Virus record (IMG/VR): IMGVR_UViG_2579778871_000005
Reading direction: 5' to 3' (one strand)
Length of the DNA: 36,051 bases
Origin: a virus
Lineage: Duplodnaviria > Heunggongvirae > Uroviricota > Caudoviricetes
Both the position numbers and the translations under genes were made by a program. This document shows, piece after piece, positions 1-34,222 of this stretch; the first letter of the stretch is position 1; each line of letters starts with the position of its first letter. The notes below the pieces were generated by a model, which did not search any database, had not been told where the DNA came from, and saw only the letters and a list, made by a program, of their open reading frames with translations.

Positions 1-258
1 TCAGGCGTCCAGATTTTCTTTCACCCATGCAGCAAAATCGGTATAGCCGCCGATATGTTGCTGATCGACAAAAATCTGCGGCACGGTTTCTACGGGTTTA
101 CCTGCCTTTTGTTGTAGATCTTCTTTAGTGATCCCTTCCGCACGAATATCTACATACTGATACTGAAAATCATCGCGTTCATTGCTCAATTTCTCAGCCA
201 GATCTTTTGCACGCACACAGTAAGGGCAACCCGAACGACCAAAAATAACGGTTTGCAT
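1..258 (-). CDS. grxA: Glutaredoxin 1 (host gene flanking the prophage)
   Basis: ORF 1..273 minus; product from the internal Met reads MQTVIFGRSGCPYCVRAKDL... with the CPYC active-site motif and matches my recollection of E. coli GrxA; ATG (plus-strand CAT) at 256-258. Confidence 0.9.
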   Translation of the reverse strand: MQTVIFGRSGCPYCVRAKDLAEKLSNERDDFQYQYVDIRAEGITKEDLQQKAGKPVETVPQIFVDQQHIGGYTDFAAWVKENLDA

Positions 259-498
259 TATTTCTCTCCTCATAGATTTATGCCTGTAATGATCACGCTA
301 AAATGTATTCGCTGAAAGTAGGTTTAACCTGTTGCATTAATTGCTAAAAGCTATAACTGTTAAACACAATACAGTGAAAAGTTTTAGACTGAAGGCTCAC
401 TTTGCAGAGGGAAGCTAAAGCCGCGCGCGATAAATCGGCGCTAAAAACGCAATAAATAGCAGGCGGCTTTCATTTCAGTATGTGTAACAGATTTTCTC

Positions 499-1221
499 TT
501 ATTTAGGGTAAGCCTGAACTCGGAACAACTTACTGTTAAGATGCTGACGCGCACGTTTATCCAAAAAGCGGATATAGCGGAACTGTTTATAACGATGTCT
601 CGTTGCTTTATCCAGATTTGCTCGAAGGTACTCTCCGCGTTTGCCACCACGAACTAGCGCCGTTCTACATATCTCATGGTAAAACTCACCATCCAATTCA
701 TAAAACGTAGAGAAATGGCTACCGATGTAGTCAAAATTTGCAGCCTGATACACTACGCCTGAACGGCCACAACGCTCATCCGCAAATGTTTGAACCCATT
801 TAACTTGTGGATAAAGAATGGAGATGAGCTTCAGTGAGTAAGCTAAGACACGACTTTCAGTATTGCGGGGCTGGCTGTCGTGAATCCACATTCGATTGAG
901 TTCCATATACTCCCGGTTGCCGGTCCCGAGTACCACTCGTGCGCCGCTGTTGGGGTTTAATGCATAACCGAACTGTAATACTCCAACCAAATTTCTCCCC
1001 GCAAATACCCCGAGATGCAAGTAACTGTTGTTAACAAACCGCCTGGAATAATGCTTATCTTGAATAATAGACCTGGCCAGCCAGCAACTGATGGTTTCTA
1101 CACGCAGTTCTGTGCAACCATATCCCACGATATCATTCTGATCCTTGATTACGCCGCGAGGGCTTAATACACGAGAAACCTTTTGAGCCATAATAACCTC
1201 TCGTCTGGCGCTCAAAGGCAC
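499..1221 (-). CDS. mom: Mom-like DNA modification protein (start may be the internal Met at 1191)
   Basis: 240-aa ORF containing [13 protein letters not shown], which matches the Mom motif I recall from phage Mu (..IYKAANFRYLG..); sits immediately downstream of, and overlapping, a Com-like zinc-finger ORF as in the Mu com-mom operon. Confidence 0.7.
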
Positions 1222-1333
1222 TCAATTCGTTTACAAACCCGCAGCGCGGGCATTTTATTTGCACCTCAATAACCTGCCCCTTGAATAGCAGTTTTGAGCA
1301 TTGCGTACATCTGACATGCATTTTGTCTGTCAT
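1133..1333 (-). CDS. com: Com-like zinc-finger translational regulator of mom
   Basis: Sub-ORF of 1133..1501 starting at ATG 1333 ([36 protein letters not shown]...), a CxxC...CxxC zinc ribbon resembling Mu Com (..IRCKNCNKLLFKA..IRCPRCK..); its 3' end overlaps the mom start. Confidence 0.55.
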
Positions 1334-1378
1334 TCTGCAAACCTTTTTCAGTATGTGAAAAACTGATAGGCTTACCGG

Positions 1379-1394
1379 ACTGATGGCCATCAGT
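1379..1394. promoter_or_regulatory. Perfect 16-bp palindrome ACTGATGGCCATCAGT upstream of com (candidate regulator binding site)
   Basis: Read directly from the sequence in the 145-bp gap between the stop at 1479 and the com start at 1333; a second inverted repeat CCAGAGTC..GACTCTGG lies at 1439-1466. Confidence 0.3.
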
Positions 1395-1478
1395 GGCAGC
1401 CTTGGGCGGCTCGCAGGCGCATCCTGCGGGTTAGCTGGCCAGAGTCTGGTTGCAGCCTGACTCTGGTCGCTGTTTTCC

Positions 1479-1931
1479 CTATAACGTCTTATTTTGAACA
1501 CTACTGGCTAGCGCGTGGAGTATGTTAGGTGAGTAACGCCAGCTATCGACCAGTCCGAGGAAATCTGCACAAAACTCACTGCAGAAATACTTATCCTCTC
1601 GCCCACGATTGAAAACAACAAACCCCACAGCACCCAACCAGTCGTATTTCAATTGGTCATTTTGCTGGAAGAACTTCTCAACGCGGGCAGGTGATGCCCT
1701 TGTCAGTATCAAATCCCATTTATCGCGCGGCAGCGGCATTTGCTTGCAGCGCACCCCCTTGTCACGCACCGACGACGAATAACAAACAAACTCACCGTTA
1801 CCCAGGTCAACGGCCAGCTCGCAGTGAGAATACTCACCCCGCGTCACCAGTCGCGTCAGCCAGTCGGAAAGCCGTGCAAACCCATGATGATCTTCTCGCC
1901 CTTTATAGAACGCCAGATACACCTGCTTCAT
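1479..1931 (-). CDS. Permuted papain-like (YiiX/YaeF-type, NlpC/P60 superfamily) protein, putative
   Basis: ORF 1479..1940; likely ATG at 1931 overlapping the upstream stop (ATGA). His-containing motif YSHCELAV early and C-terminal Cys motif KYFCSEFC, the order expected for permuted papain-fold enzymes. Assignment by motif only. Confidence 0.45.
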   Translation of the reverse strand: MKQVYLAFYKGREDHHGFARLSDWLTRLVTRGEYSHCELAVDLGNGEFVCYSSSVRDKGVRCKQMPLPRDKWDLILTRASPARVEKFFQQNDQLKYDWLGAVGFVVFNRGREDKYFCSEFCADFLGLVDSWRYSPNILHALASSVQNKTL

Positions 1932-2554
1932 GGTTGCCACCCCGTGGAGTAGTCATACGCCTGAACTGCCTGGATATCTTCCAGCGCCTCAACGGCGGCA
2001 ATATGCCGCTGGGCATTGGCAAAGAGGCGCATATCGTGATCCATTGTAACGGACTCAAACTGCGCCGCGATTTCATTGGTCAGCTCAAGAAGTCCGAGGT
2101 TTTTGGTCTGCCACATTAAGCCTTTGGGGATTTGCTTTGCCTGTCCCATTTTAGTCAGTGACATCTGCTGGATACGGCTACTGGCATCGCTGTGGAAGTG
2201 GTAGTCACCAATCACAATATAATCGGCAGTGACTTCGTCTCGTTGTGCTTTTATCGCTTGTTTAACTTGCGATTTAGCGTTATTAAGCTCGAGGGCAAAT
2301 CTGGCTACGTCATATACCCATACCTTTCCGTCTAACCGGTAAAAATCCCCTGGGGGTAATGTGGTGGTAAACGTTCTGTCTTCAACATTAACCCAGACAT
2401 ATTCCCCTTGATTGAAATGTTCAAGCCATTGTTGCTCAGTTAATTCAATCAGACTTGTTCTCTCTGGATAACAGAATAACTCGGTATCCATCCAATCCAG
2501 AACACGTAAGGATGCAGGATCGTAGTAAGCATATTTTGACATTATCTTCACCAA
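1928..2554 (-). CDS. Tail fiber assembly protein (Tfa)
   Basis: 208-aa ORF immediately downstream of the tail fiber gene with overlapping start/stop; size, position and C-terminal ..YDYSTGW.. are typical of Tfa chaperones. Confidence 0.6.
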   Translation of the reverse strand: MVKIMSKYAYYDPASLRVLDWMDTELFCYPERTSLIELTEQQWLEHFNQGEYVWVNVEDRTFTTTLPPGDFYRLDGKVWVYDVARFALELNNAKSQVKQAIKAQRDEVTADYIVIGDYHFHSDASSRIQQMSLTKMGQAKQIPKGLMWQTKNLGLLELTNEIAAQFESVTMDHDMRLFANAQRHIAAVEALEDIQAVQAYDYSTGWQP

Positions 2555-4164
2555 TAAATTCTGACGATACCAGAAGAACCATTCGATCCATTATTAAGAA
2601 CCCAGTCACCTAGATACCCCCGGTTACTGGCACTGGAGCTACCACCTGCACCACCTGCACCGAAGCCATTTGCATTAGATGGTAATGAACCAGCTATTAT
2701 CTCTGAACGTTCTAATGTGACATTCCCAGGGATTCCACCTTTACCTAAGATAGAATCACTCCCTCTTAGCCCTAGAGTTACATACTCTTCCTTACGCCCG
2801 CCTCCATTCCCATCAGAGGGGAGAAATCTTATTACATTTCCTCCTGTACACCCTGCTACACCTCCATCACCACCTGGTACATTCAGATATGCAAAAGAGG
2901 ATTGTCCTCCAGCGTTCCCGTTATAACCTATACCTTGTGAGCCGCTGCCTTTCGCACCTCCGCTACCGCCTACACCAACCATTACAGGTATCTGACTTTT
3001 TGGTGCAACATCAACATAACCAGCAATACATCCGGCAGCGATTCCCCCTGTGGAACAAACATTATTTGCTGATGAACCTCCGGCTCCGCCACCACCACCA
3101 CCAACAACCTCAACAAAGATCTGCGTCACCCCATCCGGTACAGTAAAAGTCCCATTAGCCGTAAAAAACTGATAATGGGAGTGGTTGGCTGGAGCTGCCG
3201 CACTTGCCTTGTCATACGCCGCCTTAACTGCGCTCGGCGTCGCCGCTTCCGTCGTGCTGTTACTATTCGTAGAGCTATTAAGCTTCACAACTCCTTTCTG
3301 TGCCGTCGTGGCATCCGGAACGTCGGTAATTTGATTCCAGGGGTGCGAATGATTTCCCGCCGCCTTACCATTCGCCAGGTCATACGCCGCCTTAACAGCA
3401 CTCGGTGTCGCTGCCTCTGTCGTATTGGTACTGTTCGTCGCACTATTAAGCTTCACAACCCCTTTCTGCGCCGTAGTGCCATCCGGCACCCCGGTAATAT
3501 CGCCCCACGGATGTTTATGCGCTTTATCAGCCCCAGCTTTTTCCAGTGCCTCATTCGCCTTATCCATCGCCGCCTTCACCGCCTTCGGCGTTGCTGCCTG
3601 CGTTTCCAGCGTGCTATTGGTTGAGCTGTTAAGCTGCGTAAAGCCTTTCTGCGTCAGCGTCGCGTCCGGGTGATTATGCGATCTTTCGTGCTCTTCAATA
3701 CTGGAGTCCACATAATCTACCGTTGCCATCACCAGTGATGGATCAACCATCAATGTCACAGCCGCCGCGTTCGTCACCTCCATCACCGCACGGATCACAA
3801 TCTGCTTACTGGCCCCGGCAGGCAGCTTCGGCTTATAGGTTTCCGGGAACTTGCCAATGGCGATCAGTACGCCGTCCTTATCCAGCAATCCCACCTCGCG
3901 GATATACCAGCCGCCGACTGATTCCGGCAGTACCGCCTCGGCAATCACCCACGCCGGGTTTTCCGGGGCGATTTTCAGAGTATTCAGTGGCCCGCGCCAG
4001 ACTTCACGCACCACCTTTGTCTGGCTCTCTTTCGGTTCGGCATACTGCCCACCGCCGTCGCCAACGACCATTGTTTGCAGCACTATCTGCTTTTGTTCCG
4101 CCAACGCCGCCGCGATTTTCGCGCGGCCAGCGGCGGTTAAAATGGTAAAAAATTCACTCGCCAT
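2548..4164 (-). CDS. Tail fiber protein
   Basis: 538-aa ORF; N-terminus MASEFFTILTAAGRAKIAAA... resembles the conserved N-terminal domain of Mu S / P2 H-type fibers; three in-frame tandem repeats (..AQKGVVKLNSSTNS..TTEAATPSAVKAAYD..HSHPW..ITDVPD..) and a Gly-rich C-terminal domain. Confidence 0.8.
   Translation of the reverse strand: MASEFFTILTAAGRAKIAAALAEQKQIVLQTMVVGDGGGQYAEPKESQTKVVREVWRGPLNTLKIAPENPAWVIAEAVLPESVGGWYIREVGLLDKDGVLIAIGKFPETYKPKLPAGASKQIVIRAVMEVTNAAAVTLMVDPSLVMATVDYVDSSIEEHERSHNHPDATLTQKGFTQLNSSTNSTLETQAATPKAVKAAMDKANEALEKAGADKAHKHPWGDITGVPDGTTAQKGVVKLNSATNSTNTTEAATPSAVKAAYDLANGKAAGNHSHPWNQITDVPDATTAQKGVVKLNSSTNSNSTTEAATPSAVKAAYDKASAAAPANHSHYQFFTANGTFTVPDGVTQIFVEVVGGGGGGAGGSSANNVCSTGGIAAGCIAGYVDVAPKSQIPVMVGVGGSGGAKGSGSQGIGYNGNAGGQSSFAYLNVPGGDGGVAGCTGGNVIRFLPSDGNGGGRKEEYVTLGLRGSDSILGKGGIPGNVTLERSEIIAGSLPSNANGFGAGGAGGSSSASNRGYLGDWVLNNGSNGSSGIVRIYW
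3169..3663. repeat. Three tandem ~140-bp in-frame repeats inside the tail fiber gene
   Basis: Near-identical DNA blocks (for example gccgccttaac.gc.ctcgg.gtcgc.gc.tc.gtcgt...ctattaagcttcacaac.cctttctg.gccgt) recur at about 3230-3330 and 3375-3480, mirrored by the protein repeats. Confidence 0.7.
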
Positions 4165-4883
4165 TACTCCTCCGGGTAAACAGTGACAAACTCAATACTC
4201 CAGCAGCCCGCTCCAACACTCATAACGCTGGTCTGCTCAACATTGCCATGCAGCGGAGGCAACACCGTTACCACCTCTGCACTCAGACACTCCGTCGCCA
4301 GATAAACCGCAGACGACTGACTCACGCTCTCCGCAATCCACGGCAGAACGGTAGCGATCTCGCCGCCCTGAACCGCGCTGGCGATAACGGGGATCTGGCT
4401 CTGGTTAATCAGCCAGATAGTCAGCATCTCCAGCTTTGAGCGGACGTTCTTGTACTCATGGATCAGCACAATCAGCGCGTTAAATTCATCCTCAGTCAGC
4501 CCGCGCGTCTCAAGCGTCACACCCATGCGGAAAAAGTACGGCTTGCCGCCATACTCAAACCACTCGCTGATATCGCCGTCCAGTGCCAGAATCTTCAGTA
4601 CCTGACGCACAGCCCACGGCGTACCGCGATAGCGGTGCAGCTCAATGGCCTGCTTGATCAGATCGCGTTTCTGCCGCTCATTACGGGCGAACAGCCAGCC
4701 TTCCAGCCCCTGAACATGAAACTGTTCTGCCAGCGACGGTAGCGCCGTGGCGTCCACCAGATCCACTAGGTAAATCAGCAGCACAGTCAGATCGAGTTGT
4801 GCGAAGCGTTCGGCGGCAAGATTTGCCAGCCGGGTAAAGCGTTCATCCCCGGCCAGCGGCGGTTGAAGCGGTAACTTATCCAT
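4164..4883 (-). CDS. Tail/baseplate protein, P2 gpI-like
   Basis: 239-aa ORF between the baseplate J-like and tail fiber genes, the gpI position in P2-type tails; overlapping start/stop with neighbours. Confidence 0.65.
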   Translation of the reverse strand: MDKLPLQPPLAGDERFTRLANLAAERFAQLDLTVLLIYLVDLVDATALPSLAEQFHVQGLEGWLFARNERQKRDLIKQAIELHRYRGTPWAVRQVLKILALDGDISEWFEYGGKPYFFRMGVTLETRGLTEDEFNALIVLIHEYKNVRSKLEMLTIWLINQSQIPVIASAVQGGEIATVLPWIAESVSQSSAVYLATECLSAEVVTVLPPLHGNVEQTSVMSVGAGCWSIEFVTVYPEE

Positions 4884-5991
4884 CGCTCACCCCGGCGATG
4901 GTCACATCAATTGCGGTACACTGCGCCCACTCATGCGCCGCCAGCACTCGTTTGGCAGGCGTTTCCAGCGCCACGTCATAAACTCCCGCCACCTGCAACA
5001 CCTTGATGATTTGATTGGGGACGATATCCAGCCCCAGATGGCGCTCGCGTTCTGCCGTCCAGTCGGCGATGGCCCGCCGCGCGGCAAGCAGGGTTGAGTC
5101 CTGATCGGCTTTAGTGAACAGCGTGAGTTGCGCGTTAATCTGATATGCCACGCGGAGTGGTTTCTTCGCGCTCACCTTATCTGTCAGTGGGCGCTTTTTC
5201 TCTTTGCTGACGTCCTGTACCACCTGTGCGAGCAGTTCGTCTCCGGGCAGGCCGTCCTGCGTCAGCGGGTAAATCTCCACGCAACCTTCATCCAGCCCTT
5301 CATCCGGGCCGAGGATGGCCACGTCGATAATCGCCTGACTGACCGACAACGCATGAAAGCGGTACGCGCCATAACTGCCCGCGTTGCTGAAGCACTCCGG
5401 GGCCAGCCGGATACGCTCACGCAGGGCGTCGTCACCCTCATCGGCACATCCACCGCCTGAAGCAGTAATGTTCGTTACCTGCAAATCCACGCCCGCCACG
5501 CTGTCTACCAGTGCGCTAATCTGCGCCGGTTGCCAGTCATTACCAGGCTCACCAGCGGTGGTACAGGTGGCAGTCACATCCACGCTCAGGCTTCCGGCAG
5601 GCAGCAGCACGTCATCATCGGTGGCAAACATCACGCTGTTAGAGGCGCTGGCGCGGGTTCCCTCCGGGATCAACACATTGCGCTTTTGCGCCTTGGCAAC
5701 GGAGAATTGCAATGTGGTCTGCGCCGCTTGTGCGGGCAGGCGCTTCACACCCACCAGTTCGCCGAGATAATCGAGCATTGGCGCACGGGAAAACGCCACA
5801 AGGTTCTGCTTTGCCGCTTCCTGGATGCCGATGCGTACAAGGTTCTCACGGTAGGCAAAGACGTCTATCAGCAGCCGCTCCGCCTGCGCCGGATAGAGCG
5901 TTTTACCGCTGGCCGCTTCATACTGCGCAATCATCTCGCTGGTAATTTGCGCCGGGTCGCGGTCGATAAAATCGGGTTCATCTAACGCCAT
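4876..5991 (-). CDS. Baseplate protein, P2 gpJ-like
   Basis: 371-aa ORF downstream of the W-like gene; size and synteny (V-W-J-I-H) match a P2-type baseplate; assignment by synteny and general similarity. Confidence 0.7.
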   Translation of the reverse strand: MALDEPDFIDRDPAQITSEMIAQYEAASGKTLYPAQAERLLIDVFAYRENLVRIGIQEAAKQNLVAFSRAPMLDYLGELVGVKRLPAQAAQTTLQFSVAKAQKRNVLIPEGTRASASNSVMFATDDDVLLPAGSLSVDVTATCTTAGEPGNDWQPAQISALVDSVAGVDLQVTNITASGGGCADEGDDALRERIRLAPECFSNAGSYGAYRFHALSVSQAIIDVAILGPDEGLDEGCVEIYPLTQDGLPGDELLAQVVQDVSKEKKRPLTDKVSAKKPLRVAYQINAQLTLFTKADQDSTLLAARRAIADWTAERERHLGLDIVPNQIIKVLQVAGVYDVALETPAKRVLAAHEWAQCTAIDVTIAGVSDG

Positions 5992-6386: not shown

Positions 6387-6878
6387 TTAATGAGAGTGAT
6401 GGTTGGTATTGCCGCCTGCGTCGATGATAGTGCCTGACGCATTGATATTGCCGTTAACCTGAATATTGCTATTAATCGTGGTCAGCGGTGCGGTAATAGT
6501 GATACTGGTTTTCACCTCAATCACGATTTTTTCAATGCCGCCATTAACGGTAAGTTGGTGCTGTTTGCGATCATACTCAATCGCGGCCTCATCGGAGAAC
6601 CTCACATAGCGCTTGTCTTTGTCAGTCACCGGCGGCGTATCGACCGACGAATAGACAGCCCCCAGCACCACGCCATCCTCGCCGTTATCATCCAGCAGAA
6701 CCTCCACCTGCTCGCCAATATCCGGGAGCCAGTAGTCCTTATTGTCCTGTGTATTGCGTTGCAGGATGGGGAGCCAGTTGGTACGCAGATCGTCGCATTC
6801 CGGCAGGGTGACGCGCACACACACCTTCACTTCGTCGATATCGCTGATAATACCGGTCTGTCGGGTTACGCCTTTCAT
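6387..6878 (-). CDS. Baseplate spike/assembly protein, P2 gpV-like
   Basis: 163-aa ORF upstream of the W-like gene with a beta-rich, repeat-like C-terminus (..ITITAPLTTINSNIQVNGNINASGTIID..) typical of spike proteins. Confidence 0.6.
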   Translation of the reverse strand: MKGVTRQTGIISDIDEVKVCVRVTLPECDDLRTNWLPILQRNTQDNKDYWLPDIGEQVEVLLDDNGEDGVVLGAVYSSVDTPPVTDKDKRYVRFSDEAAIEYDRKQHQLTVNGGIEKIVIEVKTSITITAPLTTINSNIQVNGNINASGTIIDAGGNTNHHSH

Positions 6879-7993
6879 TGTGTCTCCTGCGTTGTTGTAC
6901 CGTCAGGGTGATAAACGGTCAGGGTGTCGGGCTTTTTATTCTTACGTTTGCCGGAGCCAGAGCTGCTGCCCGCCGCCGTTTTCGGGCCGCGTCCAATCTC
7001 GATCTCCGTACTGTACCCTGATGAACGGTCGAACGAATGGCGGGCGCTGGTGATAAGCCACTCCCCGGAGAGCACTCCGAACCCGTCAAGATTGATTTTG
7101 TTCCCGGCGATAAGCTGCGTGTTACCCATCATGGAGAGCGAACCGGTCTGCTGATACTCGTTATGATCATCCAGCGCCGCCTCGGCTTTCACCTGTGCCG
7201 TCCCCTGATCCGCCGCCCGCGCATTGACCTTGAGCGTATCGGCGCTGGTTGATTTACCGCGTGGGGCGGTACTGCTACTGCCATCGGCGTTATAGGTGAT
7301 CAGTTCCTTATCCTTACTCTTCTGATGCGCCACCTTTGCATCCTTATAGATGCGGTTGATGGTATCGCGCAGCGACCATCGCGCCACATCCTGCGGCGTC
7401 AGCGTCGTCACCGGCGCATTGCTGCGCAGCGTGGCCAGATGGGAAAACACCAGCTCATCAGTGGTGACTTTCAGCGCGTAGCCATACTCACCCGCCAGTC
7501 GCTTCAGAAAGCCGACGTCTGTCTCCGCGTATTGCGTCACCCGATCAATAGTAATTGGCTCTATCTGGCCAACCAGCTTCAGGCCGTGCTTCTGTGCGAT
7601 ACGGCTGGCAATCGCATCCAGCGTCGTTTCTTCGTAGCCCTCGCTGGACGCGGTGCGCAGGGCGCTATTGACCGACGTCGCCACGCCGCGAATGGATACC
7701 GTATCCGGCGGTGCGCCCAGCTCAATCTCATCGATGGAGAACGATCCACAGTCCAGCAACGCTTCGCCCTGATAACCTAACTTCAGCATCAGCATATCGC
7801 CTTTGCCCGGATACCAGGCATCCCGCCAGCGCCCGGCAGTGTCTTCCACCTGCACGTCGATTTCATCCGACTCGCTCTTGAGACTGTCGGTATACGTCAC
7901 GCTCAGGACAAAAGGCGCAATATCGTGGGTGATATCTTTCTGCCCGTAAAACAGGGTGAAAACGGGGGTGATAACGGCATTTACCTGAGCCAC
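6875..7993 (-). CDS. Tail protein, P2 gpD-like (baseplate hub / late control D family)
   Basis: 372-aa ORF following the X-like and U-like genes after the tape measure, the P2 T-U-D order. Confidence 0.65.
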   Translation of the reverse strand: MAQVNAVITPVFTLFYGQKDITHDIAPFVLSVTYTDSLKSESDEIDVQVEDTAGRWRDAWYPGKGDMLMLKLGYQGEALLDCGSFSIDEIELGAPPDTVSIRGVATSVNSALRTASSEGYEETTLDAIASRIAQKHGLKLVGQIEPITIDRVTQYAETDVGFLKRLAGEYGYALKVTTDELVFSHLATLRSNAPVTTLTPQDVARWSLRDTINRIYKDAKVAHQKSKDKELITYNADGSSSTAPRGKSTSADTLKVNARAADQGTAQVKAEAALDDHNEYQQTGSLSMMGNTQLIAGNKINLDGFGVLSGEWLITSARHSFDRSSGYSTEIEIGRGPKTAAGSSSGSGKRKNKKPDTLTVYHPDGTTTQETQ

Positions 7994-8199
7994 GGTGGCA
8001 CCTCATCAACATCATGCACCTGCATCGGCCCAATCACCGGGATACGCAGCCGCAGCCCGGAGGCCAGCGTGGGCGTGATCGCAATATGCGGATTAGCGAT
8101 AATGATGCGCTCATAGCCCATCGGATCGCCATAATAGCGGAACGCCAGATTATCCCAGCGTTCACCCTCGGTGGTGATATGTTCAATCCAGCCGCCCAT
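7981..8199 (-). CDS. Tail protein X-like (small LysM-like tail protein)
   Basis: 72-aa ORF (MGGWIEHITTEGERWDNLAFRYYGDPMGYERIIIANP...) of the size and motif pattern of P2 gpX-family proteins. Confidence 0.55.
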   Translation of the reverse strand: MGGWIEHITTEGERWDNLAFRYYGDPMGYERIIIANPHIAITPTLASGLRLRIPVIGPMQVHDVDEVPPWLR

Positions 8200-9182
8200 T
8201 ACACGCTCCTTGTAATGATTGCTGCCGCCAGCCTGCTAACGGCAGGGGAGCACTCTTCCATCAGCGACTGGCCGTTGCGCACAACGTCCAGTGCCTGCGA
8301 AAAAACAGTGGTGAAATTGTCCAGACTGATATCCTCAAACCCGGTCAGGGTGCCGCTGATTTCGTCATAAATCTGCGAGGCGTATTGCCCGACGTCGCCA
8401 AGAACATCTGCAAGTACGCTGCCGTCTGTGATGTCCGTCAGCGTTTGCAGCACATCGTCCAGGGGGGACAATACATCGTCGAGAATATCTTCCAGCGGAG
8501 AGACCACCTCGTCCAGCATCTCCTCCAGCGGTCCCAGTACATCATCAACAAGATCCCCGACTTGTTCCATTGCTTCTCCAATGGCGTCCTCGACCTGTCC
8601 CGCCATATCTTCTGCCCACGACACCGCCTCATCGAACGCCTGCGCAGCGGCATCCAGCGCATCCGATACCTCACCCAGCCCGTCAGTAATATCGCCCAGG
8701 TCTTCGAACATATCGCTGCCAGAAAAACTGTCATCAGCATCGTCAGACCATGAGTCAATATTCGGATCATCCCCGGACACCGCAGGTGGCGTCAGGGGAT
8801 TTTTCGGATCGCCGATGTACTCCTTCAGCGACAGCTCCGCACTTAACGCCTGCACATTGCCGAGGCCATCGGTCTGCTGGCTGGTTGCCCGGATATCGGT
8901 GATCACAAACCAGCCGCGATAGTCACCGTTGCCGAACACCAGCGCCAGCGCCTGATGTGCCACCATCGCGTCACGCAGCCGCGCCAGTTCAACATCCGGC
9001 TGGCAATAGTGTTCGTGGAACACCAGGCTGATACTCACTTCATCCAGCTTTTCGCCGATAAACTGCAACCCCGGCTTACCTTCGATACGTGAGTGCTCGG
9101 CATAATCCATGCCAAACGACGCATCAAAACCGTCCCAGTAGGTCACCACCTCAAACTCAATATCACCCAGTACGGCAAACAT
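8199..9182 (-). CDS. Tail protein, P2 gpU-like N-terminal domain with acidic repeat-rich C-terminus
   Basis: 327-aa ORF immediately downstream of the tape measure gene; C-terminal half made of degenerate acidic repeats (DxxxDVLSPLEDxLDxV). Confidence 0.5.
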   Translation of the reverse strand: MFAVLGDIEFEVVTYWDGFDASFGMDYAEHSRIEGKPGLQFIGEKLDEVSISLVFHEHYCQPDVELARLRDAMVAHQALALVFGNGDYRGWFVITDIRATSQQTDGLGNVQALSAELSLKEYIGDPKNPLTPPAVSGDDPNIDSWSDDADDSFSGSDMFEDLGDITDGLGEVSDALDAAAQAFDEAVSWAEDMAGQVEDAIGEAMEQVGDLVDDVLGPLEEMLDEVVSPLEDILDDVLSPLDDVLQTLTDITDGSVLADVLGDVGQYASQIYDEISGTLTGFEDISLDNFTTVFSQALDVVRNGQSLMEECSPAVSRLAAAIITRSV

Positions 9183-11944
9183 TACGCATACTCCCGGCGT
9201 TCACGACGCGCCATAATCCGCTCCATCATCTTCTCCAGTTCGTGCAGGCTCAGTTTCAGCGCAGAAGTGATTTCGCCTTCGGTAGCCGATGCCGCGCCCT
9301 TGATAGTAATTTGCGGCGCAAAGGTCACATTCACCCCGGATGACTGCCCCGGTACATGCACACTGGCATTGCGCCCTTTGGCGGCAGGAGCATTACTTTT
9401 TGGTAGTTCAGGAACGGCAGGCGCGGCGGCTTTCGGTGGCACTGGCGGAAGCGGTTTGGGGCGGGATAACACTGCGCCCGCTGCTCCGGCCAGCGCCATA
9501 CCCGCCGCAGAGGGCGCAGGCGGTGCGGCTTTCGACAGCAGTGGATTGAACTGGGGAGCGATGACGCCCGTCACTGGCGCAATCTTTGGTATCGGAGCAA
9601 CATCCAGCCCCGGTACGCTGATATCCGGCAGTGGAGGAATTAACGCCGCCGCCATTTGCTGACTGGCGGAAATCGCATCCGGGGCGGTGCGGTTGATACC
9701 AATAGCGGCCCCTTGCGCGATATTATCGCCGAACCCGGCAAAGACCTGGCTGGGGGAGTGAATACCCAGCGTCTCTTTAAACCAGCCGGAAATGGAGTTA
9801 CCAAAATTGACGACCGTCTCTTTCGCGGCGGTCAGCGCATTGCCGATACCGTTCACCAGACCGTTAATCAGATTGCCGCCAAAATCGGTAAAGTTCTTCG
9901 GCATATCGATACCGAAGTATTTCATCACCCCGGCAAAGGCTTTACAGAACAACCCCAGCGGCGACCAGTTCATAATTAATCTGCCGACGCCCGCGATACC
10001 GCCAGAAAACGCGGTCTTAATCTGTGCCCAGATACCGGAGAACCAGCCTGTCACGCCGCTCCAGATACCTTTGATGCCGCTCCATGCCCCGCGAAACGCT
10101 ACCGTGACCTGCGCCCACAGCCGTTTAAAGAAAGCGGATATTGGCCCCCAGTAGCGATAAATCAGATACGCGGCCACGGCGATGCCGGTGATGATTAACC
10201 CGATGGGATTCATCAGCAGCGCACGGCCAAGAAACAATACCGCCCGTCCGGCCATCATCAGACCACGCAGCAGCCCACTGCCCAGAATTTTTGCCAGCTT
10301 TAAAGCGCTACGTCCCAGTGAAGTTAGCATCCGCGTTACCACATGGAATCTGCCCCCTGTCGAAAATGCGACTTTAAGGAACAACCAGCGGGTCCTTAGT
10401 AGTTCAACGGCTTTGATACAGTCAGCAAAGGGAGAAAGCATTAAGTTCAGCGCCAGTTTGCAGCCCACCGTTGCCGCTTTAAAGGCAATAAATCCAGCGA
10501 GTAGTTTGGCAACCGTCGCGACCATCTCCGGGTTTGCCGCGAGCCATTTACTGAACGAATCCAATACGGGTAACAGACTTTCCGATAATTCAACCAGTGC
10601 CGGGCGAAGCGAACTACCTATGCTGATTGCAATTTCATTCATCGCAACTTGAGATTTTCGCCACCGGGCTTCCAGCGTGTTATTTTGTTTACCAAAGTCG
10701 GTATCCAACGCATTTTGCGATCCAGGATCACTCATCTGGGCCTTATTAGACTGATATTTATCCCAGTTCTGCCGCATCGAAAGTAGATGATTGACGGTCT
10801 GAATATCGGTAAACACCTCTGACAGACCGAACGACTCCATCAATTTTTGCTGTGCTTCGCCGTCACCGCTTGCGCCAGCTTCCTGCCACTGCTTAATAAA
10901 TGCATCACCTTTTCCCTTAATAAAGCGATCCGCAATCATCAAGGAAGCTTCATATTGTGAATAACCTTTGGCGACGTAATCCTGCATTGACGCCTCATAG
11001 TCTACGCCCGCTTTTTCATATTTCTTAACGGTGTCACCGCGCGTCATTGCAGCCATCCAGTTAGTCATATTGGTCACAGCTTCTTCTGCTGAACCTGAAC
11101 CTTTTGCTGCCTCAAGAGATGCAACGATCTCCTTAATTGCCTCCGGCCCGGTAATGCCTTTGGCGGCAAAGCTTTTCGCCAGGGTGGGGAGAGCTTTAGC
11201 CATATCCTTTAATTCAAAGGAACCGGTCTTTGCACCGACGGCTGCCATTGCAAAGGCTTCTTCCATCTCCTTACCATCACCAATCTTCAGCGCATCGCTG
11301 AATGCATATGTCATCTTCGCCAGATCGGTCATATCGGCTTTGGTGGCGGTGGCCGTTTTACCGAGTAATTCCACCATGCCAGCTGCTTTTTCAGGATTCA
11401 TACCGTCTGCAACCAGTTGATTCACACCGCCGAGCAGTGTTTCCTGCAGTTGGTTTACCTGGCCCGCGGCCTGACGGATGGCATTACCAATAGCCACTTC
11501 CTGTTTATCATTAAGGTTGCCTGTGACGGCGATATCCCGTAAGCCGGACTCAAATCCTGCGTAGGTCTTAACAGACGATACGAACGGAGCCGACATTGTT
11601 CTTGCAAGGGCATAGGTTTCTGCCCCCTGGGCATACAGATTCATCCGCTGATTGCGTAAGGCCTGACTACGCGCGGCAGATGCTGACAATCTTGCCTGTT
11701 GATTCTGTAACTGCTGGAGAGTGCGTGAAACACGCTGTAAATCAGCGTTCAACCTGTTCGCTACGCTCCCCCCCAAATGACCGTAACGGGCAAGAGCGTC
11801 GTTCAGGGCGTTCTGTTGAGTGCGTAACCGCTGTGTTGATCTGCCTAAATCGGTTAACGCGCTGCGCGTTCCCCCCATTGCAGAACGAAACGCCCCGCTA
11901 ATTGCACCACCAATCAGAACACTAATTGAAAGATCTGCGGCCAC
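9182..11944 (-). CDS. Tail tape measure protein
   Basis: 920-aa ORF, Ala/Gly-rich with coiled-coil-like N-terminus and internal hydrophobic segments, between the tail tube/chaperone and baseplate genes. Confidence 0.85.
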   Translation of the reverse strand: MAADLSISVLIGGAISGAFRSAMGGTRSALTDLGRSTQRLRTQQNALNDALARYGHLGGSVANRLNADLQRVSRTLQQLQNQQARLSASAARSQALRNQRMNLYAQGAETYALARTMSAPFVSSVKTYAGFESGLRDIAVTGNLNDKQEVAIGNAIRQAAGQVNQLQETLLGGVNQLVADGMNPEKAAGMVELLGKTATATKADMTDLAKMTYAFSDALKIGDGKEMEEAFAMAAVGAKTGSFELKDMAKALPTLAKSFAAKGITGPEAIKEIVASLEAAKGSGSAEEAVTNMTNWMAAMTRGDTVKKYEKAGVDYEASMQDYVAKGYSQYEASLMIADRFIKGKGDAFIKQWQEAGASGDGEAQQKLMESFGLSEVFTDIQTVNHLLSMRQNWDKYQSNKAQMSDPGSQNALDTDFGKQNNTLEARWRKSQVAMNEIAISIGSSLRPALVELSESLLPVLDSFSKWLAANPEMVATVAKLLAGFIAFKAATVGCKLALNLMLSPFADCIKAVELLRTRWLFLKVAFSTGGRFHVVTRMLTSLGRSALKLAKILGSGLLRGLMMAGRAVLFLGRALLMNPIGLIITGIAVAAYLIYRYWGPISAFFKRLWAQVTVAFRGAWSGIKGIWSGVTGWFSGIWAQIKTAFSGGIAGVGRLIMNWSPLGLFCKAFAGVMKYFGIDMPKNFTDFGGNLINGLVNGIGNALTAAKETVVNFGNSISGWFKETLGIHSPSQVFAGFGDNIAQGAAIGINRTAPDAISASQQMAAALIPPLPDISVPGLDVAPIPKIAPVTGVIAPQFNPLLSKAAPPAPSAAGMALAGAAGAVLSRPKPLPPVPPKAAAPAVPELPKSNAPAAKGRNASVHVPGQSSGVNVTFAPQITIKGAASATEGEITSALKLSLHELEKMMERIMARRERREYA

Positions 11945-25195: not shown

Positions 25196-26404
25196 TTAAG
25201 GAGTGGGCTTATTGCTCAAGTGATGCCACCATGACATCACTTTTGTAACCAAGGTATTCCATGTTTCAGGGTATGTGCAGTATAGGTAAATTAATCCTGT
25301 CGATATAATAGCGACAACAAGGAACATAATGATAAACCAGAACGCAATAACCTGACGGCAAAGACGTTTACGTACAGAGCAAAAGATACTATCAATGTCA
25401 TTTTTTATTGATGCATACTTTTTATCAACCTGAGTCTTTTTATGTCGAAGTTCTTCTTTGATAGCGGTTAACGTCTGTAACTGGTTGAACAAAGTCAACA
25501 TAACCAACGTAGCAAAAACAAAGGCCCCTAAAAAAACTGCGCTATTGATAATGGTTTGATAGACATCACCACTTGCTTTCTTGATTTGTGTCGCGACGAT
25601 AATGGTTGCGACTGGGATACCCAGTATCTGGTTTTGGATATCTGAAAAGACTTTGTGGATACGTCCCATTTCTTCAACTTTGGCGGTTCTAAGTTCATCC
25701 AGAACCTTTTCGTATGAGAACCCAGAAGTGAAGAGGCGATAACCCTTATCGAACTCAACTTTTAATTTTTCAATGTTCTTCAGTGCATACTCAAAGACTT
25801 TATTGTTTTCCGTTTCCTGACCGATTAACTGGATGCTTTCAATTAAAAGGGAGAGTTTCTGCTCTTTGTGTGTGTCGTCAGAAAACTGCTGAATGAGTTC
25901 ATCGAGTGTCGTTTTATCAAGATTTTCTACGGTTTCTGCACTGTAACGTATAGGTAATTTAAATACATCGGCACGGAAAAAAACGCATTCATATGCTCTG
26001 GTATCAAAGTATGCCGACTTTTCTTTAAGCAGGCGCAGAAATGTTAAGATAGTGCGGTAGTTTTCAATTACGGATGTTGGCGCATCCGAACTATAAAATT
26101 GGCTGTCGATCAGGTAGTATCGGGAAGGTTCCTCGCTTTGGTGTTTTGGCGACTTTAACAAAGCCGCCAAATTACGGCATAGCAGACCTAGCTTTGTCTT
26201 TGGGGCGTTCACAAATAGCGACACCTGCTGACCAGGTTCTACTTCGCCTTGTGCCAGAGAGATCCCATATGTATCAGTGTCCTCAAGCAAGGTGTTGAGC
26301 AACTCGCAGGATTCTGGGGTAAGCACCAGCGTACCTTCGGCCATATCGTTACCGAAAGTAATCTGCCTGTACAATCCCACCAGCTGCTCAAAACTGATAC
26401 TCAC
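25196..26404 (-). CDS. Cargo protein of unknown function with ~330-aa soluble N-terminal region and two C-terminal TM helices
   Basis: 402-aa ORF; its start overlaps the stop of the NdpA-like gene (ATGA at 26401-26404); C-terminal hydrophobic helices (..TIINSAVFLGAFVFATLVMLTLF.. and ..VIAFWFIIMFLVVAIISTGLIYLY..); AT-richer than the phage backbone by eye. Confidence 0.75.
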   Translation of the reverse strand: MSISFEQLVGLYRQITFGNDMAEGTLVLTPESCELLNTLLEDTDTYGISLAQGEVEPGQQVSLFVNAPKTKLGLLCRNLAALLKSPKHQSEEPSRYYLIDSQFYSSDAPTSVIENYRTILTFLRLLKEKSAYFDTRAYECVFFRADVFKLPIRYSAETVENLDKTTLDELIQQFSDDTHKEQKLSLLIESIQLIGQETENNKVFEYALKNIEKLKVEFDKGYRLFTSGFSYEKVLDELRTAKVEEMGRIHKVFSDIQNQILGIPVATIIVATQIKKASGDVYQTIINSAVFLGAFVFATLVMLTLFNQLQTLTAIKEELRHKKTQVDKKYASIKNDIDSIFCSVRKRLCRQVIAFWFIIMFLVVAIISTGLIYLYCTYPETWNTLVTKVMSWWHHLSNKPTP

Positions 26405-27432
26405 TCCTCAACCTCATCCAGTATCTCTTCCCTGAAGCTATCAGGAATATTCCTTAGAATGATTACATCCTGATCACGATTATACTCAATTGAACCATCT
26501 ACAAGACCGACACGATCAAACTTTAGTTCCCAATAATTAGACTTTCCTTTAAAGGAAATGATTCCTTTTAGTACGCGTCCATCAGGGACAAAACCATCCG
26601 ACAGTTCCAGTTCTTGGTTGGCTAGTTTAGTCGAGAGTAGTTCTGGTTCTTGTGGCCAGACCGCATTCACAAAGGTTGTCAGATCTACAGGCTCACCATC
26701 TTTGCTCAGTTGCTTCAAATGGTCATGTGCAGTTTGCAGAAAAGCCTCTCGATGTGCGGGGTCAAGCCCTTGCTCAGTCGCAAATTCTTTCAACGCATCC
26801 CGCAATTTCTCCGTTTCACGCTTGGCGATCAAAACATCGTTACAGCCCAGGAATTGCTTAAAGTAACCAGATACAGCATTACTCCCCTTCAGGAAACTTA
26901 TATAACGTTCGGCACCTGATTGCCAGGACGTAATGTCAATACGCCCCGCCACACGTAGCTTGTCGATATCAAGGTAGACACTTTCTTGGATAGCAAAGGC
27001 ATCGTTAACCGCAGTACCCGTCGTGGGACTTAACATGGCAACTAAAATATGCTCGTGTTGATTCATCGTAATGTGGGCGAATAGAACATAGCCACCAGTA
27101 GCGAGTGGTGTTGTTTGAATTCGAGATTCCAAATGACGAATCATACGGCAGGAGCTACGGTAAAAATTATCAGGATGCTCCTGAGCTAAATAGTCTGATA
27201 CAATTGTTTGCATCGGGTAATTATCTGGGTCATCTTCAAAATGGCCATAGCCTTTCCCCATTCGCCCTGCATATTTCCCACAGATATCATCGATTAAGCG
27301 TTGTGATGCTGCGGTGACACCGCTCTCTGTTGGACTTAGCTGTAAGGATGTCACCCCATGCGGTTCTTTATCTAAAAGATGAACAACCACATGATTTACA
27401 ACGATTGCATTTGCAGGTTCATTTGCTGGCAT
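26401..27432 (-). CDS. NdpA/YejK-like nucleoid-associated protein homolog (diverged)
   Basis: ORF 26401..27483 (first codon GTG); likely ATG at 27432. Segment GGYVLFAHITMNQHEHILVAMLSP...RIDITSWQSGAERYISFLKGSNAVSGYFKQFLG aligns with E. coli YejK as I recall it ([24 protein letters not shown]...[37 protein letters not shown]). Confidence 0.65.
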   Translation of the reverse strand: MPANEPANAIVVNHVVVHLLDKEPHGVTSLQLSPTESGVTAASQRLIDDICGKYAGRMGKGYGHFEDDPDNYPMQTIVSDYLAQEHPDNFYRSSCRMIRHLESRIQTTPLATGGYVLFAHITMNQHEHILVAMLSPTTGTAVNDAFAIQESVYLDIDKLRVAGRIDITSWQSGAERYISFLKGSNAVSGYFKQFLGCNDVLIAKRETEKLRDALKEFATEQGLDPAHREAFLQTAHDHLKQLSKDGEPVDLTTFVNAVWPQEPELLSTKLANQELELSDGFVPDGRVLKGIISFKGKSNYWELKFDRVGLVDGSIEYNRDQDVIILRNIPDSFREEILDEVEE

Positions 27433-27509
27433 AGAATCTGAAACCTTCAGTAGAGTTAGATAGTAAATGCATGCTGTCTGCACGCTTTTTGGTTTTGTTT
27501 ACAACATGT

Positions 27510-28031
27510 TTAATCTTGCCTTGGACACATCCAGTAATCCTCATCCGGCTCTGGCGAGTAAACCATCAGGCACCCTTCGCGCGGCGGCTTCTTATCAGAA
27601 GTCATAGGAACTTTTTCTTTATCCAGTTTCACAACCAGATCCCCACCCGGTACATCCGCTTTATCGAAGCAGACAGACTGGCAGGCAGATTTTGAAATCT
27701 TTACTTCGTGGGTATTATTGGAGATGAAAAGGAAGCAGGTATGACCGGAGGCAGTGTAATTACCTGGTATGTCGTTTTTATCTTTTACGTGAAACTCGAC
27801 CGTCGTAACGGGACGTTGGCTATCATCGTAGACCTTGAACGAATCGAAGTTTGTCGCGTACTTATCCAGACCTGGGCACTGTTGACGAATAAACGGCAGT
27901 TCACGTTTTACTACCGGATTATCGGACTCAACCTTAAATGTAGTAGGGACAGGAGATGGTGCGGCATTATCATCACCACACCCAACCATTAGCAGAGCAC
28001 TTACCCCCAGAGGTAAAAGAAAGTGCTTCAT
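27510..28031 (-). CDS. Cys-rich lipoprotein of unknown function (possible exclusion protein)
   Basis: 173-aa ORF with signal peptide and lipobox (MKHFLLPLGVSALLMVGC); AAGGA ribosome-binding site before the ATG at 28031; same strand as and downstream of the repressor. Confidence 0.7.
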   Translation of the reverse strand: MKHFLLPLGVSALLMVGCGDDNAAPSPVPTTFKVESDNPVVKRELPFIRQQCPGLDKYATNFDSFKVYDDSQRPVTTVEFHVKDKNDIPGNYTASGHTCFLFISNNTHEVKISKSACQSVCFDKADVPGGDLVVKLDKEKVPMTSDKKPPREGCLMVYSPEPDEDYWMCPRQD

Positions 28032-28143: not shown

Positions 28144-28494
28144 CTATCCGGCTTGTTTATCGGGTCGGGCCTGCGTGAGCAATCGGCCCATTTCAAGAAT
28201 CGCCCTCCGTTGTTCGGCGCTCATATCGTCAAAGGCCTCTAACAACCTTTGTTTTTCTGGTGAAAAATTTTCTACCTTTTCTGCAACCATTGATGGATTA
28301 CGTTGCCCAGTAACTACATAGAGAACATCTAATCCAACCTTTGCCCAAGCCTCTAAAACCGCACTATTAGGGAACGAAGCGCCTTTTTCCCAATTGATTT
28401 GGGAGTGCTTACCTGCGCTAGCCAAAGCAGCGAAATCAGTCTGGTTGTAACCCAACCGTTCACGTTCCTTTTTAATGCGTTCACCTTGGTTCAT
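28144..28494 (-). CDS. Prophage repressor, XRE-family helix-turn-helix protein
   Basis: 116-aa ORF with N-terminal HTH-like segment (..IKKERERLGYNQTDFAALASAGKHSQINWEKG..); divergent from the early operon across a repeat-containing intergenic region; no peptidase domain. Confidence 0.7.
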   Translation of the reverse strand: MNQGERIKKERERLGYNQTDFAALASAGKHSQINWEKGASFPNSAVLEAWAKVGLDVLYVVTGQRNPSMVAEKVENFSPEKQRLLEAFDDMSAEQRRAILEMGRLLTQARPDKQAG

Positions 28495-28589
28495 TTTTTT
28501 CTACTTTTACATTGAAAGGTTGAAAATTTTCTACCATAATCTACCACACATAAACCAAACATCATTGCATCAAACAAGGAGCCAGAACC
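28495..28589. promoter_or_regulatory. Divergent repressor/early promoter-operator region
   Basis: Candidate rightward sigma70 promoter: -35 TTGAAA (28512-28517), 17-bp spacer, -10 CATAAT (28535-28540); repeated TTTTCTAC(C) at 28497-28504 and 28527-28535 and TCTACCA at 28540-28546; AAGGA before the ATG at 28590. Confidence 0.45.
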
Positions 28590-28775
28590 ATGACAACCGA
28601 TCAGGTCAAAGCCCTCTTTCGTCAGCGCGGCGTTACCTTTACCCGCTGGGCAGAAGATAACGGTTACACCCGCAATGAGGTGTATCGCGTGCTTAATGGT
28701 CAGTCAAAAGCCAACTACGGAAAGGCGCATGAGATTGCCGTCAAACTTGGCCTTAAGTCCGGCATCGCCGCCTAG
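28590..28775 (+). CDS. Ner/Cro-like small DNA-binding protein (first early gene)
   Basis: 61-aa ORF opening the rightward operon opposite the repressor; HTH-like pattern (..RQRGVTFTRWAEDNGYTRNEVYRVLNG..). Confidence 0.5.
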   Translation: MTTDQVKALFRQRGVTFTRWAEDNGYTRNEVYRVLNGQSKANYGKAHEIAVKLGLKSGIAA

Positions 28776-28836
28776 ATTTTACAGTAAGTGTAACAGCGTT
28801 TCACATACAGAAAAGAGGCAACACAGGATAATCGTT

Positions 28837-29076
28837 ATGAAACCTACCGATTTAACCCCCGGCCAGCGCGTACTGATTACACCAGAGCTTGGCCCGAAAA
28901 CCCCGCTTCACGGTACTTTTCTCCGCCGCGTTCCGCGCCAGTGTGGTCGGGCGGCTTACAGCGTTTTTCGCATTGATGAATTTGTCGAGCAGAACGGGCC
29001 AGACGATAAAGGAGACACCCCGATGTCGGATTCCTGCATTTCCCGTCGGGTACAACCACTGGAGGTGCGTACATGA
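28837..29076 (+). CDS. Hypothetical early protein
   Basis: ORF 28675..29076; likely ATG at 28837 (MKPTDLTPGQRVLITPELGP...); stop overlaps the next start. Confidence 0.4.
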   Translation: MKPTDLTPGQRVLITPELGPKTPLHGTFLRRVPRQCGRAAYSVFRIDEFVEQNGPDDKGDTPMSDSCISRRVQPLEVRT

Positions 29077-29369
29077 AGGCTTCTACCTCCGGCGCACGCA
29101 TCCTTCGCGTACTCAAAGCCCTGAAAGGCTACTCGCTCACCGGGCTGTCCAATGGCGAACTAGCGGCGGCGTTGCATGAATCCCCGGCCAATATCACTCG
29201 TGCCGCTGACACTCTGATCGAAGAGGGCCTGGTACAACGGCTGGAAAATGGGCGCTTTGCCATGAGCATGGCGATGCTACAAATCGCCCACGCTCATGCG
29301 ACAGAAGTCACCCGCGCTCAGGACAGACTAAAAGAAATGAATCAACGCCTGCTGGCTGGCAGTCGATAA
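29073..29369 (+). CDS. Winged-helix DNA-binding protein, putative early regulator
   Basis: 98-aa ORF (..ILRVLKALKGYSLTGLSNGELAAALHESPANITRAADTLIEEGLVQR..), a pattern typical of winged-helix transcription factors. Confidence 0.45.
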   Translation: MKASTSGARILRVLKALKGYSLTGLSNGELAAALHESPANITRAADTLIEEGLVQRLENGRFAMSMAMLQIAHAHATEVTRAQDRLKEMNQRLLAGSR

Positions 29370-29379
29370 GGAGTAAGCA

Positions 29380-32072: not shown

Positions 32073-32081
32073 GGGGGAGTT

Positions 32082-33206: not shown

Positions 33207-33208
33207 AA

Positions 33209-33337
33209 ATGGTATTTCACAAATTAACCGGAAAGGACGTGATGCAATACCGCAAGATATCGCTGGCTGACCGTTTTGTATTATGGGCCAGCGCTATAAC
33301 TACACTGATTTTTATATTCATAGCCTTATTTAATTAA
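33209..33337 (+). CDS. Possible 42-aa single-TM peptide (below the ORF-track size cutoff)
   Basis: ATG at 33209 preceded by AAGGAG (33196-33201); translation MVFHKLTGKDVMQYRKISLADRFVLWASAITTLIFIFIALFN; lies in the 200-bp gap after the ATPase gene. Hand-translated. Confidence 0.3.
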   Translation: MVFHKLTGKDVMQYRKISLADRFVLWASAITTLIFIFIALFN

Positions 33338-33408
33338 TTCAGGTCGCAGAAAAATGCCGTCAACCCGGCAGGCTTCGCACACCCTGAAATCACCCTGGAG
33401 ACTATTTT

Positions 33409-34026: not shown

Positions 34027-34027
34027 G

Positions 34028-34222
34028 ATGGCGACGATTAAATGTGTGTACTGCAAAAAAGAAGTCACTGAACTGGATTTTCAGCAGGCCAGCTTATTTC
34101 AGACTGATGAATATAAGGAGTGGTGTGTAAATTTAATTTTGCTCTGTCCGCACTGCGAGCAGGCTTATAACGCCTTTATTCCCACGATGGAATTAACCCC
34201 GGCAACGGAGGTAGGCGCATGA
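34028..34222 (+). CDS. Small zinc-ribbon protein
   Basis: ORF 34013..34222 (first codon TTG); ATG at 34028 gives MATIKCVYCKK...LLCPHCEQAY with a CxxC...CxxC arrangement. Confidence 0.45.
   Translation: MATIKCVYCKKEVTELDFQQASLFQTDEYKEWCVNLILLCPHCEQAYNAFIPTMELTPATEVGA

Follow-up and report, generated by a model that had tools for sequence, protein, structure and literature searches.

The tail fiber gene that we analysed lies on the − strand at 2548..4164 of IMG/VR record IMGVR_UViG_2579778871_000005, a stretch of viral DNA of 36,051 nucleotides (nt) that is referred to below, at its full length, as the window. The gene encodes 538 amino acids (aa) followed by a stop codon; it was called from its open reading frame (ORF) and its Pfam domains (PF12571, three stretches of PF03406, and PF21722), and in Escherichia coli A35 the Prokaryotic Genome Annotation Pipeline (PGAP) lists it as WP_032217798.1 under the name 'phage tail protein'. 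We consider it likely that this gene specifies the only tail fiber of a transposable prophage that is BcepMu-like and has a tail of P2 type, and that the fiber is attached to the baseplate. The fiber is assembled from three modules that had already been catalogued, and it overturns nothing in the current view of phage fibers. What it does is to place a glycine-rich, presumed receptor-binding tip of the type described for the cyanophage Pam3 on the classic P2/Mu-type fiber of E. coli and Salmonella prophages, so that the solved cyanophage structure and the lipopolysaccharide (LPS) data from Klebsiella can guide predictions for enterobacterial fibers.

The identification as a tail fiber, proposed in an earlier note made from the letters of the window alone, was borne out by a P2 gpH-type N-terminal domain and by the position of the gene directly after those for gpJ and gpI. 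Phage_tail_fib (PF12571) matched aa 1-149 (3718..4164, − strand) over profile positions 1-149 of 150 with E 7.3e-58. This domain, of P2 gpH or tail-collar type and presumed to attach the fiber to the baseplate, was ~50% identical to the N-terminus of P2 and P2-like gpH and 79-97% identical across related prophages, of which we recovered 18 loci. Directly upstream is the gene for a gpI-type baseplate protein (4164..4883, − strand; PF09684 Tail_P2_I, E 3e-34), whose stop codon overlaps the start of the fiber gene, and upstream of that Pfam identified Baseplate_J, giving the consecutive − strand order Baseplate_J, Tail_P2_I, fiber, DUF4376. The same order, gpJ-gpI-fiber-DUF4376, was kept in loci L003-L019 and L022-L030. 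The gpI context fixes the gene as that of a baseplate-attached fiber, and we propose that its N-terminal domain would dock a trimeric fiber on the gpI/gpJ wedge. Neither the ORFs of the window nor the PGAP annotation of the A35 copy contained a further fiber or spike gene downstream of the baseplate genes. Beyond the N-terminal domain, Phage_fiber_2 (PF03406, a repeat model of 42 aa) matched three stretches with a whole-protein E of 1.1e-50, and Gly_rich_2 (PF21722) matched the C-terminus at aa 336-538, profile positions 2-225 of 226, with E 1.9e-7 and 31.7 bits against a curated Pfam cut-off of 24.3 bits. The scores for all three domains are far beyond chance. The fiber had earlier been placed at 2548-3663, an interval that does take in the tip and all of the repeats but 6 nt; the N-terminal third of the gene was left out.

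The tip occupies aa 331-538 (2551..3174, − strand) and was delimited as a TNF-like plus glycine-rich (Gly_rich_2) domain from Pfam, structure prediction with AlphaFold2, Foldseek and profile searches. Glycine makes up 26-27% of the C-terminal 204-208 aa, including runs such as GGGGGG; the earlier note was right about this richness but short on the length, which is ~208 rather than ~180 aa. With 27% glycine and such runs, a modest Pfam score (the 31.7 bits given above) and three stretches of low confidence in the model of the tip segment, one might take the C-terminus for a low-complexity, flexible or disordered tail that binds nothing specifically, with receptor recognition residing elsewhere. 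The AlphaFold2 model, which was built with a 19-sequence alignment, nevertheless had a predicted local distance difference test (pLDDT) score of 84.2 and a predicted template-modelling score (pTM) of 0.81, and 126 of its 213 residues reached a pLDDT of at least 90; it thus predicted a folded domain and not the disorder that the earlier note had named as grounds for giving up its proposal. The model has beta strands at both ends and also long high-confidence stretches with neither helix nor strand. Its best Foldseek match in the PDB was the Pam3 fiber (7ypx_A, E 8e-8, template-modelling (TM) score 0.60), followed by tail-tip proteins of mycobacteriophage Bxb1 and then by the glycine-rich ligand-binding domains of ALK and LTK. 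By sequence alone, phmmer matched the tip to the Pam3 fiber with E 1e-4, and a family profile searched against the PDB found the Pam3 fiber with E 2e-15 over the whole domain including the final strand, and Bxb1 gp33 with E 5e-8. In a comparison with the tip of P0021, which is 46% identical to this one, glycine positions were conserved in 47 of 55 cases (85%) and other positions in 49 of 152 (32%), which fits a conserved glycine scaffold carrying variable residues. Full-length homology to a solved domain, the conservation of glycines far above that of the remaining positions, the confidence of the model, and the fact that none of the genes after those of the baseplate encodes a further fiber or spike together make the disordered tail very improbable. 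We conclude that the tip is a domain, folded according to its model, and a homologue of the TNF-like plus glycine-rich domain of Pam3 gp24.

Several observations weigh against our reading of the gene and its tip. AlphaFold2 confidence was low in residue blocks 121-140, 161-170 and 181-200 of the tip segment, and the Foldseek TM-score of 0.60 to the Pam3 fiber is no higher than that, with a large root-mean-square deviation. In addition, the A35 copy of the prophage (L002) has damaged tail genes, and particles may not be made from that copy: in the PGAP annotation its gpD-like gene is frameshifted, its tape measure gene contains an internal stop and one tail gene is partial (window 6875-7993, 8199-9182 and 9182-11944). 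The coordinates of A35 drift by 2-8 nt relative to the window, and at these places the ORFs of the window are uninterrupted; the two copies therefore differ in intactness.

The role of the tip as the receptor-binding part is presumed by analogy with Pam3 and with Klebsiella phage SCNJ1-Y. For Pam3 gp24, a TNF-like beta-sandwich was described together with a lattice of four layers, built by 12 glycine-rich motifs, whose distal tip is variable; the authors proposed that this tip binds the receptor, and the fiber was shown to need a dedicated chaperone, gp25 (PMC9608196). SCNJ1-Y has a gp24-like fiber that binds LPS and whose glycine-rich domain is the site of host-range mutations (PMC12671077). 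On this model, the conserved glycine stretches of the tip studied here would form a packed lattice, with the intervening variable residues left to contact the host receptor, which, judging from the Klebsiella phages with gp24-like fibers, would most plausibly be LPS. The likeness to glycine-rich receptor-binding adhesins that the earlier note had seen in the C-terminus is thus upheld in that the tip belongs to such a fiber-tip family, with Pam3 gp24, not T-even gp38, as its closest solved relative. At the start of the domain, most of the GGGGGG run comes from a (CCA)5 tract on the + strand at 3089-3103, read as (GGT)5 on the coding strand; slippage in this tract would add or remove one glycine, in frame.

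Between the N-terminal domain and the tip lies a shaft of three repeat units, whose lengths we measured between HxH motifs. Unit 1 (aa 166-218, 53 aa; 3511..3669, − strand) is preceded by HNH at aa 163-165 (3670-3678) and ends in HKH, unit 2 (aa 219-274, 56 aa; 3343..3510, − strand) ends in HSH, and unit 3 (aa 275-330, 56 aa; 3175..3342, − strand) ends in HSH right before the tip. The four motifs that bound the repeats accordingly begin at aa 163 (HNH), 216 (HKH), 272 (HSH) and 328 (HSH). As protein, unit 1 was 62-65% identical to units 2 and 3, and these were 77% identical to one another. As DNA, the units shared 67-74% identity with a longest identical run of 18 nt; a repeat finder returned the same pairs at 73-74%, among them a direct repeat, D1, of 3201-3368 with 3369-3536 (73% identical). 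Tandem Repeats Finder, run on 2000-4500, reported no repeat array, only short 9-, 10- and 3-nt tracts, because the repeats are too diverged as DNA. The repeats had been described as three near-identical units of ~46 aa, and neither the length nor the degree of identity agrees with these measurements. As protein, however, they are real and highly significant, and the alignment to fiber-repeat families that had been suggested as a check gave the three Phage_fiber_2 stretches reported above, the best of them (aa 169-210) in unit 1; this same unit aligned to residues 109-191 of the solved Mu fiber S with E 4.7e-7.

The HxH motifs recurred at unit boundaries in the relatives that we aligned or inspected, except in L010 and L022, where the last unit before the tip has none. 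In R-pyocin and T4 gp37 fibers, motifs of this kind build buried six-histidine iron sites (PMC6116203), and it is a reasonable inference by analogy that a metal site stands at each unit boundary here as well. We propose that the repeats build a trimeric shaft. At every HxH motif of such a trimer, six histidines would surround a buried Fe or Zn ion, on the pattern of T4 gp37 and the pyocin fibers.

Comparison with the related loci indicated that the tip is exchanged as part of a larger cassette. In a 100-nt identity profile against L010, identity was 92-100% from the baseplate genes to ~3400, fell to 17-69% at ~3365-2300, and was again 89-97% at ~2165-1865. This profile identifies the replaced cassette (~2300..3365, − strand) as the last repeat, the glycine-rich tip and the N-terminal part of the protein encoded by the next gene, bounded by the fiber repeats on one side and the conserved DUF4376 domain on the other. 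The GC fraction was 0.46 at 2001-3000 versus 0.55-0.60 in other tail genes. In loci L009-L011 the fiber N-terminus was 97% and the repeats 87% identical to those of the window, with four Phage_fiber_2 stretches and a different Gly_rich_2 tip that was 36% identical; in L003, L004, L012-L017 and L019 the N-terminus was 79-86% identical, the repeats numbered 0-2, and there was a Collar domain together with a tip of the HxH-needle type whose last residues are NIAFNYIVRLA. Fibers that share this N-terminus had anything between 0 and 4 repeats. In the alignment the window fiber was short of exactly one 56-aa unit relative to L010 and L022, the extra unit sitting at the position of unit 3. We propose that host range changes by homologous exchange of the cassette, for which the fiber repeats and the DUF4376 domain would serve as conserved flanks, and that the shaft grows or shrinks as entire repeat units are gained or lost.

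These comparisons bear on the claim of the earlier note that host range is fixed. The claim stands insofar as programmed switching is concerned and fails for the lineage, since relatives with 92-100% identical flanks carry a replaced tip cassette and one repeat more, and the fiber C-termini of related prophages, when compared as the note had advised, differed either as 36%-identical Gly_rich_2 tips or as Collar/needle tips. Judged from these sequences, host range appears not to be switchable within one lysogen but clearly to be exchangeable in the lineage. The same note had regarded the DNA repeats as potential recombination substrates. The comparisons support a role for them as marking one recombination boundary in evolution; as efficient substrates for homologous recombination at the present day we rejected them. 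Efficient RecA-dependent exchange in E. coli usually needs roughly 23-27 bp of identity, and with at most 18 identical nt between repeats frequent rearrangement within the fiber gene is unlikely. Just past the fiber module, some relatives with glycine-rich fibers carry additional genes that may be lysogenic-conversion or defence cargo: a GT4 glycosyltransferase at 4178-5320 of the Escherichia albertii-type loci L029/L030, and RlaP plus a Band_7 protein at 7072-8996 of the E. coli locus L022.

No inversion system was detected, as the earlier note had stated. The PGAP annotation of the whole prophage in its A35 copy listed a DDE transposase and no recombinase, a Pfam search of the genes that follow the fiber gene and of ten further ORFs brought up no resolvase, and there were no inverted repeats of at least 20 nt flanking 1900-3700. 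When the fiber, its repeats or its tip were used as tblastn queries within the window, the sole match was the fiber gene itself, so there was no second, alternative fiber segment. A Gin sequence used as tblastn query gave nothing better than E 0.09 in the window and no match at E 1e-4 or better in loci L003-L021; that sequence served as a lead only, and it is from Pfam and PGAP that we conclude that an invertase is absent. The note had drawn the comparison with Mu, for which this prophage is the wrong partner: with a transposase 68.6% identical to BcepMu gp09 it is BcepMu-like, and BcepMu is the right reference. As BcepMu was itself reported to have no fiber inversion system (PMC2771037), a missing invertase is expected and unremarkable. 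A fiber might still be switched in a programmed way without Gin, by recombination between the repeats or by slippage in the (GGT)5 tract, and both the difference of exactly one repeat unit among relatives and the presence of the triplet tract at 3089-3103 could be taken in this sense. Set against them are the limit of 18 identical nt between repeats, short of the length for efficient RecA-dependent exchange, the shortness of a tract of five triplets in which slippage would remain in frame, and the fact that the fiber region is 100% identical in both complete E. coli genomes that carry it; we regard programmed switching as extremely improbable and retain exchange of the cassette in the lineage as the preferred explanation.

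The gene directly downstream of the fiber gene (1928..2542, − strand) encodes a DUF4376 protein of 204 aa (PF14301; phrog_1807 and phrog_2837, both 'tail'). Its C-terminal ~145 aa, which contain the conserved DUF4376 domain, were 63-71% identical in every related locus, and its N-terminal ~60-85 aa varied with the type of fiber tip. Pfam matched DUF4376 alone in this protein and not Caudo_TAP (PF02413), whereas the syntenic proteins of L012, L003 and L019, which are Collar/needle-tip loci, matched Caudo_TAP (E 7e-6 to 1e-4) as well as DUF4376. All of the glycine-rich-tip loci that we examined (besides the window, L009-L011, L022-L025, L026, L027, L028 and L029/L030) carried the ~200-aa DUF4376 form with the different N-terminus and no Caudo_TAP match; this form was also present in Enterobacter, Superficieibacter and Scandinavium. 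By sequence, the window protein is therefore to be described as a relative of the Caudo_TAP proteins through its C-terminal domain, not as a member of that family. Its AlphaFold2 model (pLDDT 91.9) is rich in beta structure in the N-terminal part and mixed, though for the most part helical, in the C-terminal part, and it had no fold match in the PDB, Pam3 gp25 and Mu Tfa included; phmmer against the PDB likewise found nothing, and no sequence similarity to gp25 was detected.

Because of its gene position, the Caudo_TAP matches in its relatives and its covariation with tip type, the DUF4376 protein is probably a fiber assembly chaperone; in such a role the variable N-terminal domain would hold the tip and the conserved C-terminal domain would drive assembly. 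Strict covariation of the N-terminal part with tip type could also be expected of a protein that stays on the fiber tip and provides or shares receptor binding, as do Mu Tfa and T-even gp38, with the glycine-rich domain acting mainly as a docking platform, and the chaperones of Mu and Ur-lambda were reported to be present in mature phages (PMC9608196). However, Pam3 gp25 is absent from virions and covers distal loops, so that it must leave before infection (PMC9608196), it is the fiber's own glycine-rich domain that carries the host-range mutations of SCNJ1-Y (PMC12671077), and no fold match was obtained between the DUF4376 model and Mu Tfa; we therefore think it unlikely that the DUF4376 protein is itself a binder. 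Its putative action as a tip-specific chaperone is the one mildly novel lead of this analysis and gives the DUF4376 family a testable role. Going further, we suggest tentatively, as a proposal somewhat more doubtful than probable, that the ~200-aa DUF4376 proteins accompanying Gly_rich_2 tips in enterobacterial prophages constitute an undescribed class of chaperones dedicated to TNF-like/polyglycine tips, with a fold unrelated to those of Mu Tfa and Pam3 gp25, and that the tip together with the N-terminal domain of the chaperone, between flanks provided by the fiber repeats and the conserved DUF4376 domain, forms a plug-in host-range cassette for P2-type tails. The approximate bounds given above for the naturally exchanged tip and chaperone segment should be usable for host-range engineering in P2-type phages and tailocins. 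Next comes a gene for a 153-aa protein (1479-1940, − strand), present after the DUF4376 gene in all 15 of the related loci that reach that far and 55-86% identical regardless of tip type. It had no Pfam match and no PDB match by phmmer, and PHROGs placed it in phrog_1128, an 'enoyl-CoA hydratase/carnithine racemase-like' moron.

The prophage as a whole is BcepMu-like and not Mu-like. Besides its similarity to BcepMu gp09, the DDE transposase was 75-76% identical to those of Escherichia phage PhiKM and Klebsiella phage KP12, and the genes fall into divergent clusters, the early genes on the + strand at 28144-35610 and the late genes on the − strand at 499-25142. A Mu-type Com/Mom module nevertheless occupies the prophage end at 499-1390. 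The prophage (~416-35755) sits between grxA and ybjC, and the 6-bp sequence GGAAGC, found once at the empty site of strain GF4-3, is duplicated at its junctions (410-415 and 35756-35761), which fits insertion by transposition. Between the repressor and lysis genes, a block of low GC (25196-28031, − strand; 0.41-0.47 versus 0.55-0.62 elsewhere) holds ORFs of 402 aa and 173 aa that have no Pfam match and a gene for an NA37 nucleoid-associated protein; these may be cargo or moron genes.

In IMG/VR the window was identified with contig UViG_2728369607_000010. Among 5,426 complete E. coli genomes, window positions 1-4900, which include the fiber gene, were present at 100% identity in two, A35 and OkiPb01694. 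In the other ~5,400 genomes only the ~449-nt grxA flank of this 4.9-kb query was matched, and the fiber region is therefore absent from them. The tip itself was likewise confined to 2 of the 5,426 genomes, with a related tip type in 6, and the fiber architecture recurred in Escherichia and Salmonella. A word-indexed protein search with the tip returned 20 matches and was swamped by low complexity; an exhaustive protein search gave 388 matches at E <=1e-3, with one cluster representative above 50% identity. In a collection of 50,697 phage records, megablast of 1400-4900 gave no match, and tblastn did not find the tip beyond a 29-aa match at the domain start in a partial Salmonella phage record.

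Several known systems resemble the fiber in part. The adhesin family of T-even gp38, represented by gp38 of Salmonella phage S16 (PDB 6F45), was considered as a possible relative of the tip and set aside: it gave no profile match at E up to 10 and was not among the 50 Foldseek matches listed, and gp38 is a protein in its own right that sits on the end of gp37. The likeness of the fiber tip to it is one of design, not of demonstrated homology. The TNF-like plus glycine-rich domain of ALK and LTK was matched by Foldseek with E 2e-4 to 1e-2 and probability 0.9-1.0, and the same similarity was reported for gp24 by the authors of the Pam3 study (PMC9608196). However, the TM-scores were 0.25-0.35, ALK gave no sequence match with the family profile at E up to 10, and these proteins are eukaryotic cytokine receptors; the relation of the tip to them is at the level of fold only.

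With BcepMu-like phages (BcepMu, phiE255, PhiKM and KP12) the prophage shares a transposase that is 69-76% identical, divergent early and late clusters, a P2-like tail cassette and the lack of a fiber inversion system (PMC2771037), but its tip was found in no isolated phage of the 50,697-record collection. With P2 gpH and Mu S, whose Tfa chaperones are gpG and U, the fiber shares its PF12571 N-terminus (~50% identical to P2-like gpH), the Phage_fiber_2 repeat carried by Mu S (5yvq; E 4.7e-7), and a gene order in which gpJ and gpI precede the fiber gene and a helper gene follows it. The classic P2/Mu type, as seen in the related prophages, has a Collar plus HxH-needle tip and a Caudo_TAP chaperone, whereas here the tip is glycine-rich and the helper has no Caudo_TAP match; unlike Mu, the fiber has neither a G segment nor Gin.

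The closest parallel for the tip is provided by gp24 and gp25 of Pam3 (PDB 7ypx and 7yfw). Pam3 infects a cyanobacterium and the host here is E. coli; gp24 is a minimal chain of 280-289 aa with an alpha-helical N-terminal shaft, whereas the present fiber begins with a domain of P2 gpH type and continues with three HxH-bearing Phage_fiber_2 repeats; and the downstream DUF4376 protein has no detectable sequence or fold similarity to gp25. The tip, on the other hand, is homologous to that of gp24 over its full length, beginning with FT.sGTFTVP.GV...GGGGGG and ending in a G.V.I.W strand, and, as in Pam3, a small gene for a helper protein made of two parts lies directly downstream of the fiber gene.

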